From Shigella phage ESh33, in the sequence record ON528743: 64,000 nucleotides of DNA. The stretch is one strand, 5' to 3'. Made by a program: the position numbers and the translations under genes. The notes beneath the pieces were generated by a model, which saw only the letters and a program-made list of their open reading frames with translations, ran no database searches and had not been told where the DNA came from. This document shows, piece after piece, positions 1,901-59,366 of the stretch. The stretch's first letter is position 1. Every line of letters begins with the position of its first letter.

Positions 1901-2116
1901 ATGAGATTGATTATGAGAACTGAGGTTGTGGTGTTTACTCTTCATGAGTCTGGAAAGTCATTCATTGAAATTGCTCGTGAATTAAACTTACAGGCAAAAG
2001 AAGTGGCTGTATTATGGGCTCGAGCTATGACTGCTAAGAATAAATTTGAAACTCGAGAAAAAGTTGTCTATAGAAAAAGACATATTAATAAAAAGGTGAA
2101 AAATGGAACAGTATGA
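1901..2116 (+). CDS. hypothetical small protein (71 aa)
   Basis: ORF between hoc terminator and rnlB; exact start uncertain (ATG 1901 or 1913). Confidence 0.45.
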   Translation: MRLIMRTEVVVFTLHESGKSFIEIARELNLQAKEVAVLWARAMTAKNKFETREKVVYRKRHINKKVKNGTV

Positions 2117-2381
2117 TTTTTATGAAAATGAATCTTTTGCTAATCAATTACGTGAAAAAGCACTTAAAAGTAAACAGTTTAAGCTAGAGTGTTTTATTAA
2201 AGATTTTTCGGAACTTGCTAATAAAGCAGCTGAACAAGGTAAAACATATTTTAGTTATTATTGTACTGCTCGCGATAAATTGATTACTGAAGAAATTGGT
2301 GATTGGCTGAGAAAAGAAGGATTTAGCTTTAAAGTCAATAGTGATCAGCGTGATGGTGATTGGTTAGAAATTACATTTTGA
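2103..2381 (+). CDS. hypothetical protein (92 aa)
   Basis: ORF with RBS AAAGGTG upstream of ATG 2103; overlaps previous ORF end. Confidence 0.55.
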   Translation: MEQYDFYENESFANQLREKALKSKQFKLECFIKDFSELANKAAEQGKTYFSYYCTARDKLITEEIGDWLRKEGFSFKVNSDQRDGDWLEITF

Positions 2382-3424: not shown

Positions 3425-4708
3425 TTATTCATCAATAATAATTTTTGGTAATTTAACACCTAATAAAACAGACAAATCTGAACGACCCGCCATTTTATCC
3501 ATGTCTCCACCGTCAATTATTCTTGCTTCTTTTTCATCTTTTGCTACGGTATAAGGATTTGCTGATAAAGCATATCTAACTAATAAACCAATAGACGGTT
3601 GTAAGCTTTCTGGATCAACAACAACTTTAAATGCACCTACATGTTCAGGGTCATCTAAGTCGAGACCTTCTGTATACGGAGCATAGAAAATTGATCCAAC
3701 AATTTCTTTTTCACCGATATTTTCTACTACACCAACGATTACATAATCTAATGGGCTGTTAGTATCGCAATAAAGCGGTAAACCATTAGCTAAGAATCCA
3801 TAGGCATTTTGTGAAAGATATTTATCATCTTCTGGTTTATGTTTTAACCAACCTGATGCAGCAAGAATCGCAGCGGCACGAGCAGAAGCAACACAGAACG
3901 TTGCTGTATAAGTTGATTCTTTTTGGATATGCGAAACCATTTCACACACCATTCGGTATAATGAACGACCAGCTTCAGGTGCAGATGCATAACTCAAATC
4001 AATGAATCCAGTATCAGTAATTCCTGTAACTTTATAGCGTTTTGACACTGTAATCAAAGACTGCAGAATATCTTTATTGATTTCATCTGCCATTTCGGTT
4101 GCAAGCAAATCTTCCAAGAAATTAGGAGCATCGAATCCATTTGCTTCTAAATCTTGTGCTAATTCAACTGTAATGCCAGTTTTAAGTTTACGAGATTTAA
4201 CTGCGGTTTGCCATTTATTAATCTGGAATCTAGCATCCGCAATTTCACTATCAGAGCTTTCAAATTTGCTTGTTGATGCTGCATCAGAAAATAGACGAAC
4301 CTTTAAAAGAACGATTGCAATCTGAAGAGCTAACTCTAAGTCGCTTTCTTCAATATCAGCAAATGGTGTATCTTCTAATACTTTATAAACGATATTATTA
4401 TATTTGAATAAATCGCCTTTATTGAGAGTTAATTTAGACTCTTCTGTTAATTCTGTGATTTGTTCTCGGTCTACATATCCAGCTTCGCCAGCATAAGTAG
4501 CACCAGTTTTAAATGTAAATTCATTGTCTGGGTTAAGGTATTTGATACCATAAAAAGCAGCAACAGGTTGATTAGTTCTTTGCGTTGCTACAATGTCAGA
4601 ATATATTAATTTAGTGGTAGCGCGAGTCAAAGCAACGAGATTTGGGCGACCGATTGAGTTGCTATTCGTTGTGGTTGATTCGCGCAGAAGTTCGTTGATT
4701 TTAGCCAT
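3425..4708 (-). CDS. 24: head vertex protein gp24
   Basis: 427 aa, capsid-fold paralog of gp23; T4 position and length. Confidence 0.9.
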   Translation of the reverse strand: MAKINELLRESTTTNSNSIGRPNLVALTRATTKLIYSDIVATQRTNQPVAAFYGIKYLNPDNEFTFKTGATYAGEAGYVDREQITELTEESKLTLNKGDLFKYNNIVYKVLEDTPFADIEESDLELALQIAIVLLKVRLFSDAASTSKFESSDSEIADARFQINKWQTAVKSRKLKTGITVELAQDLEANGFDAPNFLEDLLATEMADEINKDILQSLITVSKRYKVTGITDTGFIDLSYASAPEAGRSLYRMVCEMVSHIQKESTYTATFCVASARAAAILAASGWLKHKPEDDKYLSQNAYGFLANGLPLYCDTNSPLDYVIVGVVENIGEKEIVGSIFYAPYTEGLDLDDPEHVGAFKVVVDPESLQPSIGLLVRYALSANPYTVAKDEKEARIIDGGDMDKMAGRSDLSVLLGVKLPKIIIDE

Positions 4709-33922: not shown

Positions 33923-33936
33923 GGGCCCTCCTGTTT

Positions 33937-33944
33937 ATAAATAT
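33937..33944 (+). promoter_or_regulatory. late promoter for gene 4
   Basis: TATAAATA on plus strand 26 nt upstream of gene 4 ATG. Confidence 0.65.
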
Positions 33945-33951
33945 ATTATCT

Positions 33952-33959
33952 ATTTATAA
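33952..33959 (-). promoter_or_regulatory. late promoter for gene 53 (divergent from gene 4 promoter)
   Basis: TATAAATA on minus strand 30 nt upstream of gene 53 start. Confidence 0.6.
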
Positions 33960-37343: not shown

Positions 37344-37356
37344 TTTCACAAAGTTG

Positions 37357-37393
37357 TTTACATGCTGATGAGGTAGTGATACTATTACCTCAT
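37357..37393 (+). promoter_or_regulatory. sigma70-like early promoter for ipI with palindrome flanking the -10
   Basis: TTTACA-17-TACTAT with TG extension; inverted repeat GATGAGGTA/TACCTCATC around the -10. Confidence 0.6.
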
Positions 37394-37416
37394 CAAAATT
37401 AATTAGGAAAAATAAA

Positions 37417-37701
37417 ATGAAAACTTATCAAGAATTCACTTCAACGACTAGCGCTTCTACTTTGACTGAAGCGACCCTTACTTCTGAAGTTATTAAAGCA
37501 AACAAAGGACGTGAAGGTAAACCGATGATTAGCCTGGTTGATGGCGAAGAAGTCAAAGGTACTGTTTACCTGGGTGATGGATGGTCCGCTAAGAAAGATG
37601 GTGCTACAATCGTTATCTCCCCTGCTGAAGAAACTGCTTTGTTTAAAGCCAAGCATATTTCAGTAGCTCAGCTTAAAATTATTGCAAAAAATCTTCTATA
37701 A
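37417..37701 (+). CDS. ipI: internal protein I (capsid-targeted, predicted gp21-processed)
   Basis: 94 aa; N-terminal capsid targeting sequence MKTYQEF with L-T-E cleavage motif, leaving a ~76-aa mature protein; next to 57B as in T4. Confidence 0.8.
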   Translation: MKTYQEFTSTTSASTLTEATLTSEVIKANKGREGKPMISLVDGEEVKGTVYLGDGWSAKKDGATIVISPAEETALFKAKHISVAQLKIIAKNLL

Positions 37702-37704
37702 TAG

Positions 37705-37742
37705 TTTACAACTTGATAGAACTATGTTATAGTAGTTCTATC
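37705..37742 (+). promoter_or_regulatory. sigma70-like early promoter with palindrome flanking the -10
   Basis: TTTACA-17-TATAGT with TG extension; inverted repeat GATAGAACT/AGTTCTATC. Confidence 0.6.
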
Positions 37743-37769
37743 AAAACAAATGTGAAATTGGAGAATAAA

Positions 37770-37955
37770 ATGAAACGCTGTGAATTAATTCGAAATGTTG
37801 CTATTGCAATTTCTGCTTCCGCTTTTAGTTTTTCAATGTTTGTTGGATTTATATGCGGATTATTAACTACAGCAGAAAATGTGTTTTCGCTTGTAGTAGC
37901 ATTTTTAATTGGTTTAATCGCTATCGTTATGGATAAAATTTCTAAAGGTGAATAG
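37770..37955 (+). CDS. small membrane protein (61 aa)
   Basis: RBS GGAGAA; hydrophobic helices; downstream of palindrome-flanked promoter 37705-37742. Confidence 0.6.
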   Translation: MKRCELIRNVAIAISASAFSFSMFVGFICGLLTTAENVFSLVVAFLIGLIAIVMDKISKGE

Positions 37956-39235: not shown

Positions 39236-39308
39236 TGGGAATTAGCCAAGTTGGTAAGGCACTGGATTTTGATTCCAGGATGCAAAGGTTCGAGTCCTTT
39301 ATTCCCAG
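39236..39308 (+). tRNA. tRNA-Gln (anticodon UUG), no encoded CCA
   Basis: Cloverleaf by hand: acceptor TGGGAAT/ATTCCCA, anticodon loop TTTTGAT, T-arm GGTTCGAGTCC. Confidence 0.8.
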
Positions 39309-39309
39309 C

Positions 39310-39396
39310 GCGAGAATGGTCAAATTGGTAAAGGCACAGCACTTAAAATGCTGCGGAATGATTTCCTTGTGGGTTCGAGTCCCACTTCTCGCACCA
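39310..39396 (+). tRNA. tRNA-Leu (anticodon UAA), long variable arm, CCA encoded
   Basis: Acceptor GCGAGAA/TTCTCGC, anticodon loop CTTAAAA, T-arm GGGTTCGAGTCCC. Confidence 0.8.
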
Positions 39397-39401
39397 AATT
39401 T

Positions 39402-39475
<74 letters not shown>

Positions 39476-39485
39476 ATTTAATTTA

Positions 39486-39559
39486 CTCCGTGTAGCTCAG
39501 TTTGGTAGAGCGCCTGATTTGGGATCAGGAGGTCCAAGGTTCAAATCCTTGTATGGAGA
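39486..39559 (+). tRNA. tRNA-Pro (anticodon UGG), no encoded CCA
   Basis: Acceptor CTCCGTG/TATGGAG with G-U pairs, anticodon loop TTTGGGA, T-arm GGTTCAAATCC. Confidence 0.75.
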
Positions 39560-39561
39560 CT

Positions 39562-39651
39562 GGAGGCGTGGCAGAGTGGTTTAATGCACCGGTCTTGAAA
39601 ACCGGCAGTCGCTCCGGCGACTCATAGGTTCAAATCCTATCGCCTCCGCCA
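39562..39651 (+). tRNA. tRNA-Ser (anticodon UGA), long variable arm
   Basis: Acceptor GGAGGCG/CGCCTCC, anticodon loop CTTGAAA, T-arm GGTTCAAATCC, CCA encoded. Confidence 0.8.
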
Positions 39652-39656
39652 GTTTT

Positions 39657-39732
39657 GCTGATTTAGCTCAATAGGTAGAGCAACTCACTTGTAATGAGAA
39701 GGTCGGCGGTTCGATTCCGTCAATCAGCACCA
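39657..39732 (+). tRNA. tRNA-Thr (anticodon UGU)
   Basis: Acceptor GCTGATT/AATCAGC, anticodon loop CTTGTAA, T-arm GGTTCGATTCC, CCA encoded. Confidence 0.75.
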
Positions 39733-39733
39733 A

Positions 39734-39808
39734 GGCCCTGTAGCTGGAAGGTTCAAGCAAGCGACTCATAATCGCCAGATGGTGGTTCAATTCCACCCAG
39801 GGCCACCA
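39734..39808 (+). tRNA. tRNA with anticodon CAU (Ile2 if lysidine-modified, otherwise Met)
   Basis: Acceptor GGCCCTG/CAGGGCC, anticodon loop CTCATAA, T-arm GGTTCAATTCC, CCA encoded. Confidence 0.7.
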
Positions 39809-39814
39809 AATTAA

Positions 39815-39901
39815 GGGGAGTTATCCCGTAGAGGTAGCGGTGTGGACTGTAAATCCATTGTCATTGCGACTCGGGTGGTTCGACTCCATCACTCCCCACC
39901 A
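39815..39901 (+). tRNA. tRNA-Tyr (anticodon GUA), long variable arm
   Basis: Acceptor GGGGAGT/ACTCCCC, anticodon loop CTGTAAA, T-arm GGTTCGACTCC, CCA encoded; not among the eight T4 tRNAs as I recall them. Confidence 0.7.
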
Positions 39902-39905
39902 ATTT

Positions 39906-39980
39906 GGATGTGTAGCTCAATGGCAGAGCGATCGCCTGTTAAGCGATTGGTTATAGGTTCGAATCCTATCACGTCCGCCA
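39906..39980 (+). tRNA. tRNA-Asn (anticodon GUU)
   Basis: Acceptor GGATGTG/CACGTCC, anticodon loop CTGTTAA, T-arm GGTTCGAATCC, CCA encoded. Confidence 0.7.
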
Positions 39981-40094
39981 AATTTGTGACAACTGTCACA
40001 TTAATATCTACTTGACGCGATTATAGGGGTTGAACTGATCACTCTTCTCTTAATTTCGTGTGAAGACATCATGATTGTTGGAGTAGATATTAAT
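39981..40094 (+). ncRNA. 114-nt structured spacer inside the tRNA array; candidate small stable RNA or processing element
   Basis: No ORF; long-range inverted repeat CATTAATATCTAC (39998-40010) / GTAGATATTAATG (40083-40095) and local palindrome GTGACAACTGTCAC. Confidence 0.3.
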
Positions 40095-40170
40095 GTGGCC
40101 GTAGTTCAGTTGGTAGAACTCGAGATTGTGATTCTCGTAGTCATGGGTTCGACTCCCATCGGTCACCCCA
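40095..40170 (+). tRNA. tRNA-His (anticodon GUG); position -1 is T, so no encoded G-1
   Basis: Acceptor GTGGCCG/CGGTCAC, anticodon loop TTGTGAT, T-arm GGGTTCGACTCCC, CCA encoded. Confidence 0.7.
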
Positions 40171-40174
40171 ATTA

Positions 40175-40250
40175 CGGGGCATAGCTCAGAAGGAAGAGCA
40201 AGGACCTTCTAAGTCCTAGGTCGTAGGTTCGATCCCTACTGCCTCGACCA
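40175..40250 (+). tRNA. tRNA-Arg (anticodon UCU)
   Basis: Acceptor CGGGGCA/TGCCTCG, anticodon loop CTTCTAA, T-arm GGTTCGATCCC, CCA encoded. Confidence 0.75.
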
Positions 40251-40619: not shown

Positions 40620-40960
40620 GAAACCGGGTCGCTACCGGTAAGTCGTCGGACTGATGTTCCCTGTTTAAGGACTGGCATTAATAAATCTTTATGTTTTGTT
40701 AATGTCCCCTTATATCACAGCAGAAACGGCGCACCGAATTATCGATTCGAGGAAATATCTTTGCCGTAAGCCGAGTAGCGTTTTTGACGGAACGTTCGGA
40801 TATGGTCGAGATATGGCCTTTTAAAAATATTGAGTAGCGTCAACTGCTTGATAACCGGGTTCGAATCCCGGCGTTTCGTACAAACACTTGCCTTAGCAGG
40901 TGGAACCCCGACAAGGTTGCCGCAAGGCTTAGCCCCAGCCGAAAGGTTGGGGCTTTTTAG
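40620..40960 (+). ncRNA. ORF-free structured region; candidate small stable RNA(s) ending in an intrinsic terminator
   Basis: ~340 nt without ORF; tRNA-like T-arm CCGGGTTCGAATCCCGG at 40854-40870; repeated GAGTAGCGT; terminator 40932-40958. Confidence 0.35.
40932..40958 (+). terminator. intrinsic terminator closing the tRNA / small RNA region
   Basis: GCCCCAGCC-GAAA-GGTTGGGGC then TTTTT. Confidence 0.7.
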
Positions 40961-41478: not shown

Positions 41479-41486
41479 CATTCTTA

Positions 41487-41514
41487 GCCCTAGCCAAAAG
41501 GTTGGGGCTTTTTG
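41487..41514 (+). terminator. intrinsic terminator after the IP-like gene
   Basis: GCCCTAGCC-AAAA-GGTTGGGGC then TTTTTG; near-duplicate of the 40932 hairpin. Confidence 0.7.
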
Positions 41515-41676: not shown

Positions 41677-41719
41677 ACAACTATCAACTACTGATACAGA
41701 AAACAACTTGGAGAATGAA

Positions 41720-45683: not shown

Positions 45684-45688
45684 AGTTG

Positions 45689-45727
45689 TTTACTTTCTCC
45701 TAGAACTGTGATAGTATATTCACAGTT
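45689..45727 (+). promoter_or_regulatory. sigma70-like early promoter for denV with palindrome flanking the -10
   Basis: TTTACT-17-TAGTAT with TG extension; inverted repeat AACTGTG/CACAGTT. Confidence 0.55.
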
Positions 45728-45742
45728 ACTTGGAGGGATAAA

Positions 45743-46159
45743 ATGACTCGTATTAATTTGACTTTAGTATCTGAACTTGCTGATCAGCATTTAATCGCAG
45801 AATACCGTGAATTGCCGCGTGTTTTTGGTATAGTTCGTAAACACTTGGCAAATGGTAAGCGGGTTAAAGATTTTAAAATATCTTCCGAGTTTATTTTAGG
45901 TTCTGGTCATGTTACGTTCTTTTACGATAAGTTAGAATTTTTGCGAAAGCGTCAATCAGACATTATAACGGAATGCTTAAAACGTGGGTTTAGTATAAAA
46001 GATACTGAAGTTCCTGACATCAGTGATATTCCAGCAGAATGGAAAAATGATTATAATCCATGCAAATCAGCTATTAAATTGAGTCAACAACGACTCGATG
46101 AAAAAATTTTAATGAAGCCACACTGGTACAAGTATTACGGCAAAAATATTTACATTTAA
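45743..46159 (+). CDS. denV: endonuclease V (pyrimidine dimer DNA glycosylase)
   Basis: 138 aa; [17 protein letters not shown]...WYKYYGK close to T4 DenV as recalled. Confidence 0.9.
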
Positions 46160-49123: not shown

Positions 49124-49126
49124 CTG

Positions 49127-49155
49127 TTTACTTTTCCTCTTGACTGTGGTATAAT
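49127..49155 (+). promoter_or_regulatory. sigma70-like early promoter for regB
   Basis: TTTACT-17-TATAAT with TG extension. Confidence 0.65.
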
Positions 49156-49182
49156 TTTTCTATCAGTTAAGAGGAGAATAAC

Positions 49183-49644
49183 ATGACTATCAATACAGAA
49201 GTTTTTATCCGTCGAAATAAGCTTCGTCGTCACTTTGAGTCGGAGTTTCGTCAAATTAACAATGAGATTCGTGAGGCATCAAAAGCAGCAGGGGTCTCAT
49301 CGTTTCATCTAAAATATTCTCAGCATCTTCTTGATCGTGCAATTCAACGGGAGATTGATGAGACATATGTTTTTGAATTATTCCACAAAATAAAAGACCA
49401 TGTTTTAGAAGTTAATGAATTCCTGAGTATGCCTCCGCGTCCTGACATTGACGAGGATTTTATTGATGGGGTTGAATACCGTCCTGGACGTTTAGAAATC
49501 ACAGATGGAAATCTTTGGCTTGGATTTACAGTTTGTAAACCTAATGCGAAGTTCAAAGACCCGTCACTTCAATGTAGGATGGCAATTATTAACAGTCGTC
49601 GTTTACCAGGAAAGGCTTCTAAAGCAGTAATTAAAACTCAATGA
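49183..49644 (+). CDS. regB: site-specific endoribonuclease RegB (probable)
   Basis: 153 aa, same length as T4 RegB; RBS GAGGAG behind a perfect sigma70-like promoter (TTTACT-17-TATAAT); position near tk and denV consistent with T4. Confidence 0.6.
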   Translation: MTINTEVFIRRNKLRRHFESEFRQINNEIREASKAAGVSSFHLKYSQHLLDRAIQREIDETYVFELFHKIKDHVLEVNEFLSMPPRPDIDEDFIDGVEYRPGRLEITDGNLWLGFTVCKPNAKFKDPSLQCRMAIINSRRLPGKASKAVIKTQ

Positions 49645-54133: not shown

Positions 54134-54136
54134 TGG

Positions 54137-54165
54137 TTTACAAGTTGGCAAGGTTATGGTATAGT
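54137..54165 (+). promoter_or_regulatory. sigma70-like early promoter
   Basis: TTTACA-17-TATAGT. Confidence 0.55.
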
Positions 54166-54193
54166 AATCTTGTCAACTGTCAAGGAGAAGAGA

Positions 54194-54298
54194 ATGAAAA
54201 TTTTGTTTGTTGTGTATGTGGTGATTCAATATAATTACCCAATGTTTACTTATAATCTGGTGAACAACATTATTGATATGATTCAGAGGAGTATGTAA
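54194..54298 (+). CDS. hydrophobic micro-ORF (34 aa)
   Basis: RBS AAGGAGAAG; MKILFVVYVVIQ...; TAATG coupling to next ORF; speculative. Confidence 0.3.
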   Translation: MKILFVVYVVIQYNYPMFTYNLVNNIIDMIQRSM

Positions 54299-57029: not shown

Positions 57030-57030
57030 T

Positions 57031-57058
57031 AGGGAGCCTTCGGGCTCCCTTTTTTATT
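57031..57058 (+). terminator. intrinsic terminator after the nucleotidyltransferase-like gene
   Basis: GGGAGCC-TTCG-GGCTCCC then TTTTTTATTT. Confidence 0.75.
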
Positions 57059-57080
57059 TCAAAAATTTTTCACAAAACTG

Positions 57081-57109
57081 TTTACAAGCATAAAGCTTTA
57101 TGGTACTAT
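57081..57109 (+). promoter_or_regulatory. sigma70-like early promoter (cassette shared with 41648 promoter)
   Basis: TTTACA-17-TACTAT; 26-nt upstream block identical to 41630-41655. Confidence 0.6.
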
Positions 57110-57147
57110 ACAACTATCAAAACAAATGAGTAAATTGGAGATACAAA

Positions 57148-57348
57148 ATGACTACTTTGAATAAACGTTTCGGTAAAGCTAAATCTGGTTGTGCAGCTGA
57201 ACGTCGTTATGTTTTCGCTCAGTTAGAAGATGTAGAGTATCAGATTAATCAAGTTCACATTACTGGTATCGAGCCTATGTGTGGCCTTGAAGCTCTTCGT
57301 GAAGTTCGTGACGGGTATCGTCGTGACATCGAAGAAATGTCAAAATAA
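57148..57348 (+). CDS. hypothetical small protein (66 aa)
   Basis: RBS GGAGA behind early promoter 57081-57109. Confidence 0.55.
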   Translation: MTTLNKRFGKAKSGCAAERRYVFAQLEDVEYQINQVHITGIEPMCGLEALREVRDGYRRDIEEMSK

Positions 57349-57349
57349 G

Positions 57350-57387
57350 TATACAAACTGATAGGACTATGTTATAGTAGTCCTATC
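57350..57387 (+). promoter_or_regulatory. promoter for the AAA+ ATPase gene with palindrome flanking the -10
   Basis: TATACA-17-TATAGT; inverted repeat GATAGGACT/AGTCCTATC, a compensated variant of the 37715-37742 element. Confidence 0.55.
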
Positions 57388-57405
57388 AAATCAAAGGAGA
57401 ATAAA

Positions 57406-58778: not shown

Positions 58779-58781
58779 TTG

Positions 58782-58810
58782 TTTACAAGACTGTTCCTCT
58801 GTGGTATTAT
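58782..58810 (+). promoter_or_regulatory. sigma70-like early promoter
   Basis: TTTACA-17-TATTAT with TGG extension. Confidence 0.6.
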
Positions 58811-58838
58811 ACAACTATCAACTACGGAGGAACAGAAA

Positions 58839-59366
58839 ATGAATGCTAAAGATATTTTCAACTTGGTAAACTACAATGATGGTAAATTTAAATCTGAAGC
58901 TCAAAGCAAGTTCTTTAATGATGTCTCAATCGGTGGTGAAATCACGGTTGATGGAGGACAAATTTACAAATCCCGTTGGAATTGGATCGTTATTATCGAT
59001 GAGATTGGTATTGTAGAAATTTACAAAAATACGAATAAAAATCGTACATTACACTGGTCTCGTGATACTAACGAACAGTACAAAAAGGATAAAGCATCTA
59101 AATTATCTCGTGTAACTCAAGAAGATATTGAGTTCATCAAGAAAGATATTTTGATGTATGATAACTTAATTGCTGAAGAGCAAGCTGTTATTGATAAATT
59201 TGACGAGATTAAAGCTTCTCGTGAAATTCCTGATTTTATGAAAGAATCAGTAAATGAACGATACACTCTCATTTCAGAGCGTATTGAAACTTACAAAAAG
59301 CAAAGAGCTGAACGCCAGAATACTCTTCGGAAGTTTGAAGAACGGTTAAAGACGGTACTCGCATAA
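58839..59366 (+). CDS. hypothetical protein (175 aa)
   Basis: ATG 58839 with RBS GGAGG behind early promoter 58782-58810; track start 58779 lies in the promoter. Confidence 0.55.
   Translation: MNAKDIFNLVNYNDGKFKSEAQSKFFNDVSIGGEITVDGGQIYKSRWNWIVIIDEIGIVEIYKNTNKNRTLHWSRDTNEQYKKDKASKLSRVTQEDIEFIKKDILMYDNLIAEEQAVIDKFDEIKASREIPDFMKESVNERYTLISERIETYKKQRAERQNTLRKFEERLKTVLA

Follow-up and report, generated by a model that had tools for sequence, protein, structure and literature searches.

The window analysed here, the whole 64-kb stretch of DNA from Shigella phage ESh33 (ON528743), belongs to a Tequatrovirus of the T4 group, and its early-gene strand is the + strand, on which the promoter cassettes described below lie. 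Two strong early promoters in it, that of trna.4 (site 1) and that of nrdC.10 (site 2), carry an inverted repeat around the -10 element. Site 1, where the window and Yersinia phage phiD1 share about 98% identity, begins directly 3' of the double stop TAA-TAG of ipI (37699-37704), with a -35 element GTTTAC at 37704-37709 (sigma-70 hexamer TTTACA, 37705-37710) and an extended -10, TGtTATAGT, at 37725-37733 (TGn 37725-37727, TATAGT 37728-37733). The resulting promoter, TTTACA-N17-TATAGT with TG, has 10 of 12 consensus matches, and 25 of the 29 nt 5' of it are A or T. The left arm TTGATAGAACTA (37713-37724) lies in the spacer of the promoter, from about -27 to -16, the loop TGTTATAG (8 nt, 37725-37732) contains most of the extended -10, and the right arm TAGTTCTATCAA (37733-37744) covers the discriminator and start region, about -7 to +5. 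With the -10 hexamer set at -12 to -7, transcription is predicted to start at A37740, within a conserved CTATCAA. The 5'UTR downstream of the hairpin (37745-37772) has a Shine-Dalgarno (SD) sequence GGAG at 37760-37763 and leads to the ATG at 37770 of a 61-aa ORF ending at 37955, which the earlier note had described as a membrane ORF and which is the orthologue of T4 Trna.4; no Pfam family was found for it. Further 3', beyond trna.4-trna.2, 11 tRNA genes are clustered at 39236-40247, compared with 8 in T4; these 11 tRNAs are the only hits of Rfam 15 at gathering score in the window, with none at either site.

Site 2 has the same layout. Its -35 element GTATAC (57349-57354) adjoins the TAA stop codon (57346-57348) of a 66-aa ORF, and the promoter reads TATACA-N17-TATAGT, with the left arm TGATAGGACTA at 57359-57369, the loop and -10 at 57370-57378 (the same 8-nt loop TGTTATAG; TATAGT 57373-57378) and the right arm TAGTCCTATCA at 57378-57388. 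The predicted start is A57385, again within CTATCAA, and the SD sequence GGAG (57396-57399) and the ATG of nrdC.10 (57406) follow. At both sites GGAGAATAAAATG forms the 3' end of the cassette, in the SD region. The A/T share 5' of site 2 is about 63%, lower than at site 1, because the upstream ORF extends to the -35 element. The window around site 2 is 99.5% identical to phage PinkRuby. The downstream product, NrdC.10, is a 322-aa P-loop protein, and its designation as an AAA+ ATPase in the earlier note has a counterpart only in sub-threshold Pfam AAA matches. The 66-aa ORF (57148-57348, between nrdC.11 and nrdC.10), for which no Pfam family was found, has an early promoter of its own at 57080, with which it makes up a module at 57080-57348; ahead of this promoter lies a canonical terminator, at about 57030-57057, and the promoter spacer contains, entirely between -35 and -10, a perfect palindrome ATAAAGCTTTAT (57090-57101), which is another of the stem positions published for promoter-early stem-loops (PeSLs).

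The earlier note had reported GATAGAACT-ATGTTATAGT-AGTTCTATC at 37715-37742 and GATAGGACT-ATGTTATAGT-AGTCCTATC at 57360-57387, and both are present exactly there, in early promoters with a central, TGn-extended TATAGT as it had said. The inverted repeat stands at both sites, but not its arm length of 9 bp, as the inverted-repeat scan of the 64-kb window gave perfect arms of 12 bp at site 1 and 11 bp at site 2. The paired change between the two copies is also real: A37720/T37737 and G57365/C57382 are genuine pairing partners. In the sense RNA, site 1 folds with z = -4.2 (-20.1 kcal/mol for an 86-nt segment, about -16 for the hairpin itself) and site 2 with -17.7 kcal/mol and z = -4.8; the hairpins end about 16 and 8 nt before the SD sequence, respectively, and leave it unmasked.

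With a minimum arm length of 9 bp and a loop of 3–12 nt, the window has only 10 perfect inverted repeats, against 3.8 ± 2.3 in Markov simulations, and the three longest of these all lie at early promoters, namely those of ipI, nrdC.10 and trna.4. The pattern shared by the two sites had 0 matches at up to 3 mismatches in 100 shuffles. Tight stems with the -10 in the loop occur in at least 5 of the 13 early promoters of the window, and some relatives have 5–7 copies per genome of the cassette family to which the two sites belong. The ipI cassette (37356-37419), of the same architecture, has a stem TGATGAGGTA (37366-37375), loop gtgatactat, TACCTCATCA (37386-37395), and this stem (TGATGAGGTA-N10-TACCTCATCA, 37366-37395) is identical in T4. 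A cassette of the same geometry at 54136-54196, whose PST orthologue drives MobD.2, has AGTTGgCAAGgTTA (54143-54156), loop tggtatag and TAAtCTTGtCAACT (54165-54178) with two G.T wobbles, and a cassette of the second internal-protein locus (45688-45745) has AACTGTGA (45704-45711), loop tagtatat and TCACAGTT (45720-45727), with one T.G wobble pair in PST.

The pairing at sites 1 and 2 is maintained by selection, and the evidence for this comes from covariation among relatives. When IMG/VR was searched for exact matches to TGATNNNNCTATGTTATAGTAGNNNNATCA, only 2 contigs were returned, too few to count pair states, and loci anchored on protein sequences were therefore used. Among the orthologues of the trna.4 promoter in 20 T-even-type contigs, a stem surrounds the -10 in all, but the arms are unrelated: the variants include GATAGGGTA/TACCCTATC, ATGGGATA/TATCCCAT, AGGGTTAT/ATAACCCT, GGGCT/AGCCC and a 13-bp stem extending to the SD sequence. 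One pair of this promoter can be followed through its states, being A-T in the window and in locus L021, G.T in L010 and G-C in L011. In an alignment of 12 distinct family members with the loop TGTTATAG, which were selected for pairing, 91% of the cells are paired and 7 of the 12 stem pairs show changes on both sides, the intermediates being mostly sense-strand G.T; these values were matched by 0 of 500 shuffles, and the signal was lost when the partner was shifted by 1–3 columns. A second set of cassettes was chosen by BLAST homology, independently of pairing, and its inner 10 pairs gave 95 Watson-Crick pairs, 3 G.T/T.G, 1 C.A and 1 G.A. Pairing is likewise kept between T4 and PST at ipI/ipV, ipVI and trna.4. 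The earlier note had taken the single paired change as an argument for selection on structure and had named uncompensated arm changes at a similar rate as evidence to the contrary; changes on one side alone occur, but most of them are neutral through wobble pairing, and full compensation is far above chance, so that its argument is borne out by strong covariation among relatives.

More broadly, the window and 60 loci supplied 284 unique early-promoter cassettes. A stem scoring 7 or more is present in 49% of them, compared with 16% of dinucleotide shuffles, in a count uncorrected for phylogeny. About half of the cassettes are thus stemless, which implies that the stem is dispensable.

The mismatches that do occur indicate on which strand the structure is formed. 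Unique mismatch events inside stems comprise 21 G.T/T.G and 6 A.C/C.A, compared with 46:56 in shuffles (Fisher p = 0.003), and base composition alone predicts about 1:1. In addition, among the stems bracketing the -10, sense folds are 2.0 kcal/mol stabler than antisense folds (26 vs 12; Wilcoxon p = 0.003). Such one-strand wobble tolerance speaks for a single-stranded structure, with the pairing read on the sense strand, and counts against a protein site in duplex DNA or a symmetric cruciform. The simplest reading of a sense-strand structure is mRNA, although part of the surplus of G.T could stem from strand bias in mutation.

However, the RNA in question would not be the promoter's own transcript. 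With the predicted +1 inside the right arm, that transcript would lack the hairpin, and only read-through RNA from upstream would have it. An annotation of phage SA21RB by another group labels these palindromes as rho-independent terminators (WebGeSTer/TransTermHP). The tails of the two sites are AACAAATG and AATCAAAG and have no U-tract, which makes efficient intrinsic termination unlikely; of 16 tight stems, only 1 is followed by 4 or more T within 8 nt, and A predominates in the tails. The terminator scan of the window flagged neither palindrome, and the identification of the stems as canonical terminators was ruled out on this ground. Real terminators of the window (40931, 41486, 57030) are G+C-rich with T-runs. 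A literature search found no published T4 transcript-end data (Term-seq, cappable-seq) for either site.

The distribution of stems is nevertheless related to that of terminators, in the opposite sense. When stems anywhere in the cassette were counted among cluster representatives, uncorrected for phylogeny, and a terminator was scored within 85 nt upstream, a stem was present in 81 of 143 cassettes without a terminator but in only 4 of 28 with a canonical one (p = 5e-5). The stems that bracket the -10, taken alone, show the same trend, which at the cluster level is not significant (p = 0.14).

The cassettes are also places where genomes differ. Phages with nrdC.10 at least 99% identical have two arrangements at site 2. 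In SA20RB, L027, L029, PST and most other records, a promoter 3' of the nrdC.11 terminator leads directly into nrdC.10, whereas in the window, L028 and PinkRuby this promoter drives the 66-aa ORF, after which come the site-2 cassette and nrdC.10. This ORF is missing from PST, SA20RB and most of 656 related records, and other lineages have different small ORFs and cassettes between nrdC.11 and nrdC.10. Divergence at this indel starts after CTATCAA and stops at GGAGAATAAAATG, that is, within the cassette. The 5'UTR of the relatives (ctgatacggattt) is unlike either UTR of the window, so that a simple deletion from one window cassette to the other does not account for the event. At site 1, the entire cassette from the ipI stop to the trna.4 SD sequence differs from those of T4 and PST, and the flanking genes are conserved. 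In PST (L067, about 2060-2125, minus strand), the trna.4 stem GATGgGgTA/TAtCtCATC is chimeric: its left arm is as in the trna.4 cassettes of other phages and its right arm as in ipV/ipI, and two G.T wobbles keep the pairing. This is consistent with an origin by crossover in the shared loop gtgatactat. The comparison with T-even relatives that the earlier note had called for thus yields indels and replacements at cassette boundaries, a level of resolution at which we make no claim to exact crossover points.

The earlier note had also remarked on a resemblance to the stem-loop cassettes reported for T4-type phages, and the consensus, the stem position, the internal-protein (IP) locus and the ORF-plus-cassette indel near site 2 all agree with it. 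According to Arbiol 2010 (PMC2839356), PeSLs were defined in RB49 and phi1 as strong early promoters combined with stem-loops, mostly between -35 and -10 or over the -10; promoter activity, efficient terminator activity and mini-circles were shown experimentally, for the RB49/phi1 elements only, and the proposed roles are to terminate or attenuate transcription arriving from upstream and to serve as sites for recombination of ORF cassettes. The same paper attributes to Repoila 1994 the finding of PeSL-like sequences at two T-even internal-protein loci. For the T4/PST pair, Comeau, Arbiol & Krisch 2014 (PMC4122927) give a stem 'AGNA-loop-TCNT' and a promoter TTTACW-N17-TAYWAT. T4 and PST are of the same phage group as ESh33, and site 1 lies at the same locus, with ipI/IP beside trna.4. 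The stem consensus fits the AGAA/TTCT and AGGA/TCCT of sites 1 and 2, and the promoter consensus fits both sites except for the G at position 5 of the -10. An AT-rich stem of variable size, an SD sequence and ATG at the 3' end, hyperplastic regions and indels are likewise common to the T4/PST elements and our two sites, and we see no essential difference. In PST, other arm variants are found at trna.4 and the site-2 cassette is absent. A figure legend in the 2014 paper places the PST stems 'just upstream of the promoter' (PMC4122927), whereas the sites here and the PST IP locus bracket the -10.

What we find at the two sites is thus a sigma-70-type intergenic promoter, a stable stem-loop over the -10, an SD sequence and start codon 3' of it and an A/T-rich upstream region, in several copies within hyperplastic regions (the IP locus and nrdC.x), beside small variable ORFs and accompanied by indels and replacements. 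Because all sequence-level features of PeSLs are present, the earlier note had correctly rediscovered a published element, and on these features sites 1 and 2 are of an already known kind, site 1 lying at a locus where it was first noticed. The likeness to the RB49/phi1 elements is looser. They share a composite of promoter and stem-loop before small ORFs, with the stem over or near the -10, but in Arbiol 2010 (PMC2839356) the RB49 stems are G/C-rich (polyG/polyC), with promoters near TTGACA/TATAAT, and are efficient terminators, whereas the stems here are AT-rich; the same paper calls the T-even elements 'analogs, not homologs' of RB49 PeSLs. In the RB49-like loci L055 and L057 the stems lie around the -35 and a T-run follows, unlike at our sites. 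Three aspects, uncorrected for phylogeny, appear to be incremental in that they were not seen in the available portions of the PeSL papers: the sense-strand wobble bias, the lack of a U-tract together with the mutual exclusion with terminators, and a class of stems that would mask the SD sequence, described below.

Other known systems offer partial analogies. Hairpins in T4 genes e, soc, 49 and I-TevI mask the ribosome-binding site in read-through transcripts only, and the promoters concerned are late or middle ones. There, too, the promoter lies inside the hairpin and its own transcripts lack the 5' arm, as at the sites here; their masking function would be matched in the window by stems over GGAG at 49132-49178 and 58791-58835, but sites 1 and 2 do not mask. 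Intrinsic terminators and REP stabilisers resemble our stems as stable intercistronic hairpins soon after a stop codon, and the distribution of the stems complements that of canonical terminators; however, the stems here are AT-rich, average -13 kcal/mol and have no U-tract, and a terminator or stabiliser role is putative. Integron attC sites, an analogy cited by Arbiol 2010 (PMC2839356), also mark cassette boundaries with imperfect palindromes whose one-strand structure is conserved over sequence. The element here differs in being a promoter as well, recombination is thought to be homologous, and no dedicated integrase is implied.

Taken together, we consider it probable that both sites are T-even PeSL cassettes in which the hairpin bounds the upstream cistron in read-through RNA and the cassette aids module shuffling. 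The arms have been recruited from two weakly constrained segments of the promoter, one in the spacer (about -27 to -16) and one across the discriminator and the start (about -7 to +5), and the constrained extended -10 serves as the hairpin loop. In read-through RNA from ipI or the 66-aa ORF, the hairpin would lie 10–15 nt past the upstream stop codon. There it would mark the 3' end of the upstream cistron, by attenuating transcription and/or holding up 3' exonucleases, and so stand in for a canonical terminator where intergenic regions are tightly packed. A stabiliser or attenuator role is what we infer from these positions. For exonucleases to be blocked in this way, the RNA would first be cut, either within the A/U-rich leader or at GGAG. 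RegB cleaves the GGAG of early SD sequences, and a RegB cut there would place the hairpin near the new 3' end. Finally, a cassette of about 70 nt, repeated 5' of many early genes, provides the homology for gain, loss and swap of ORF-plus-promoter modules, a step for which one indel was observed here and the remainder is taken from the literature.

A wider version of this reading is more tentative. It is possible, though we would not assume it, that the stems are a general 'promoter-embedded transcript insulator' of T-even early regions, acting in sense RNA and in read-through transcripts only, in two forms. In one, tight hairpins with the -10 in the loop may take over from canonical terminators the task of delimiting the upstream cistron at its 3' end or of stabilising it; in the other, stems with long loops and an anti-SD sequence in the spacer may block downstream translation on read-through RNA. 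If this is true, each early gene would be expressed essentially from its own promoter alone.

Several alternatives would place the function, if any, in DNA. One is that the stems are recombination elements. The T4 machinery would preferentially cross over at a DNA hairpin or cruciform, or merely at copies of the cassette, and ORF modules would thereby be excised and inserted as mini-circles, with the RNA hairpin incidental. That cassette boundaries are the places of indels and replacements, and that the PST trna.4 stem joins arms of two cassettes across gtgatactat, agrees with this idea, which we nonetheless regard as unlikely: a cruciform needs both strands, yet a sense G.T is an A.C on the other strand, antisense folds are less stable than sense folds, and the depletion of stems beside canonical terminators is not predicted. 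Moreover, about 70 nt of cassette homology suffices without a palindrome, and evolvability is a weak selective force. The strand specificity of wobble tolerance also counts against the idea that the repeat acts within the promoter, by tuning melting, supercoil sensitivity or escape and hence its own output. Spacer and discriminator modulate sigma-70 promoter kinetics, the arms sit in precisely these segments, and, besides the canonical elements, the literature describes 'additional regions of consensus' in T4 early promoters. However, arm sequences are unrelated between cassettes and pairing alone is kept, some stems lie elsewhere, bracketing the -35 or extending to the SD sequence, and half of the strong early promoters are stemless, so that we give this explanation little credence.

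It could also be that there is no selected function, the two sites being recent paralogues in which pairing was restored by quasipalindrome-templated mutation or gene conversion. Quasipalindrome-templated mutation is well documented in T4, and the two cassettes, which can be aligned all the way from -35 to ATG, are clearly paralogous. We consider this very unlikely, since distant T-even lineages have stems with unrelated arms at one and the same place in orthologous promoters, stems are about 3-fold enriched over shuffles, and templated repair predicts neither the bias of G.T over A.C nor the link to terminator absence. Least of all do we expect an operator, at which a dimeric phage or host protein would bind the palindrome and repress some early promoters, for example during early shut-off; the proposal would be extremely hard to sustain. 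Dyad symmetry across the -10 is the classical layout of such a site, and the mechanism of T4 early-promoter shut-off is incompletely explained in the literature, but the half-sites co-vary instead of being conserved, arm length (5–16 bp), loop (6–34 nt) and position all vary, and strand-specific wobble is meaningless in a duplex site. The operator, cruciform-only and neutral-palindrome readings were accordingly rejected on covariation, strand bias and the anti-correlation with terminators.

The two sites confirm that T4-type early promoters come as portable cassettes in which a structure is packaged together with the promoter, and this structure is under real selection. This bears on how phages may gain and lose small genes in hyperplastic regions without disturbing the neighbours, and on annotation, in that palindromes of T-even early promoters should be labelled neither operators nor canonical terminators. 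The wobble bias, the terminator exclusion and the SD-masking class amount to testable predictions on the insulation of adjacent early units.

The SD-masking class was noticed in the window at two cassettes, 49126-49185 (left arm 49132-49146, right arm 49164-49178) and 58781-58841 (left arm 58791-58805, right arm 58821-58835), which by PST orthology are the promoters of regB and nrdC.8. An anti-SD sequence (..CCTC..) just 3' of the -35 pairs with GGAG/GAGGAG, and the -10 and start site lie within a loop of 15–17 nt, so that the SD sequence would be masked in read-through RNA only. This type was seen in 13 of 171 cassette clusters; L022 and L025 have it likewise at trna.4, with a 13–16 bp stem.

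Some further observations concern individual elements. In T4 (L002, about 3520-3570, minus strand), the trna.4 promoter reads ATAGGGT-N18-ACCCTAT, with the left arm directly 3' of the -35; its spacer looks rearranged relative to relatives (tttaGATAGGGTA), with the stem retained. A start motif, (a)CTATCAA(c/a), is found 1–7 nt 3' of the -10 in nearly all early promoters, with or without a stem (for example, 37740-37746, 57385-57391, 41682-41688, 57112-57118 and 58815-58821), and in the family of sites 1 and 2 the right arm has this motif as its outer half. Two canonical terminators of the window, at 40931-40954 and 41486-41509, are near-identical, AGCCCCAGCC-GAAA-GGTTGGGGCT and AGCCCTAGCC-AAAA-GGTTGGGGCT, each followed by TTTT; a C-to-T difference between them turns a C-G pair into a sense-strand U.G wobble. 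Lastly, a perfect 9-bp repeat, TTATAAATA-N7-TATTTATAA, at 33935-33959 places TATAAATA, the motif of T4 late promoters, on both strands, with GGAG directly after it, and probably marks divergent late promoters, by position in the gene 4/gene 53 region.
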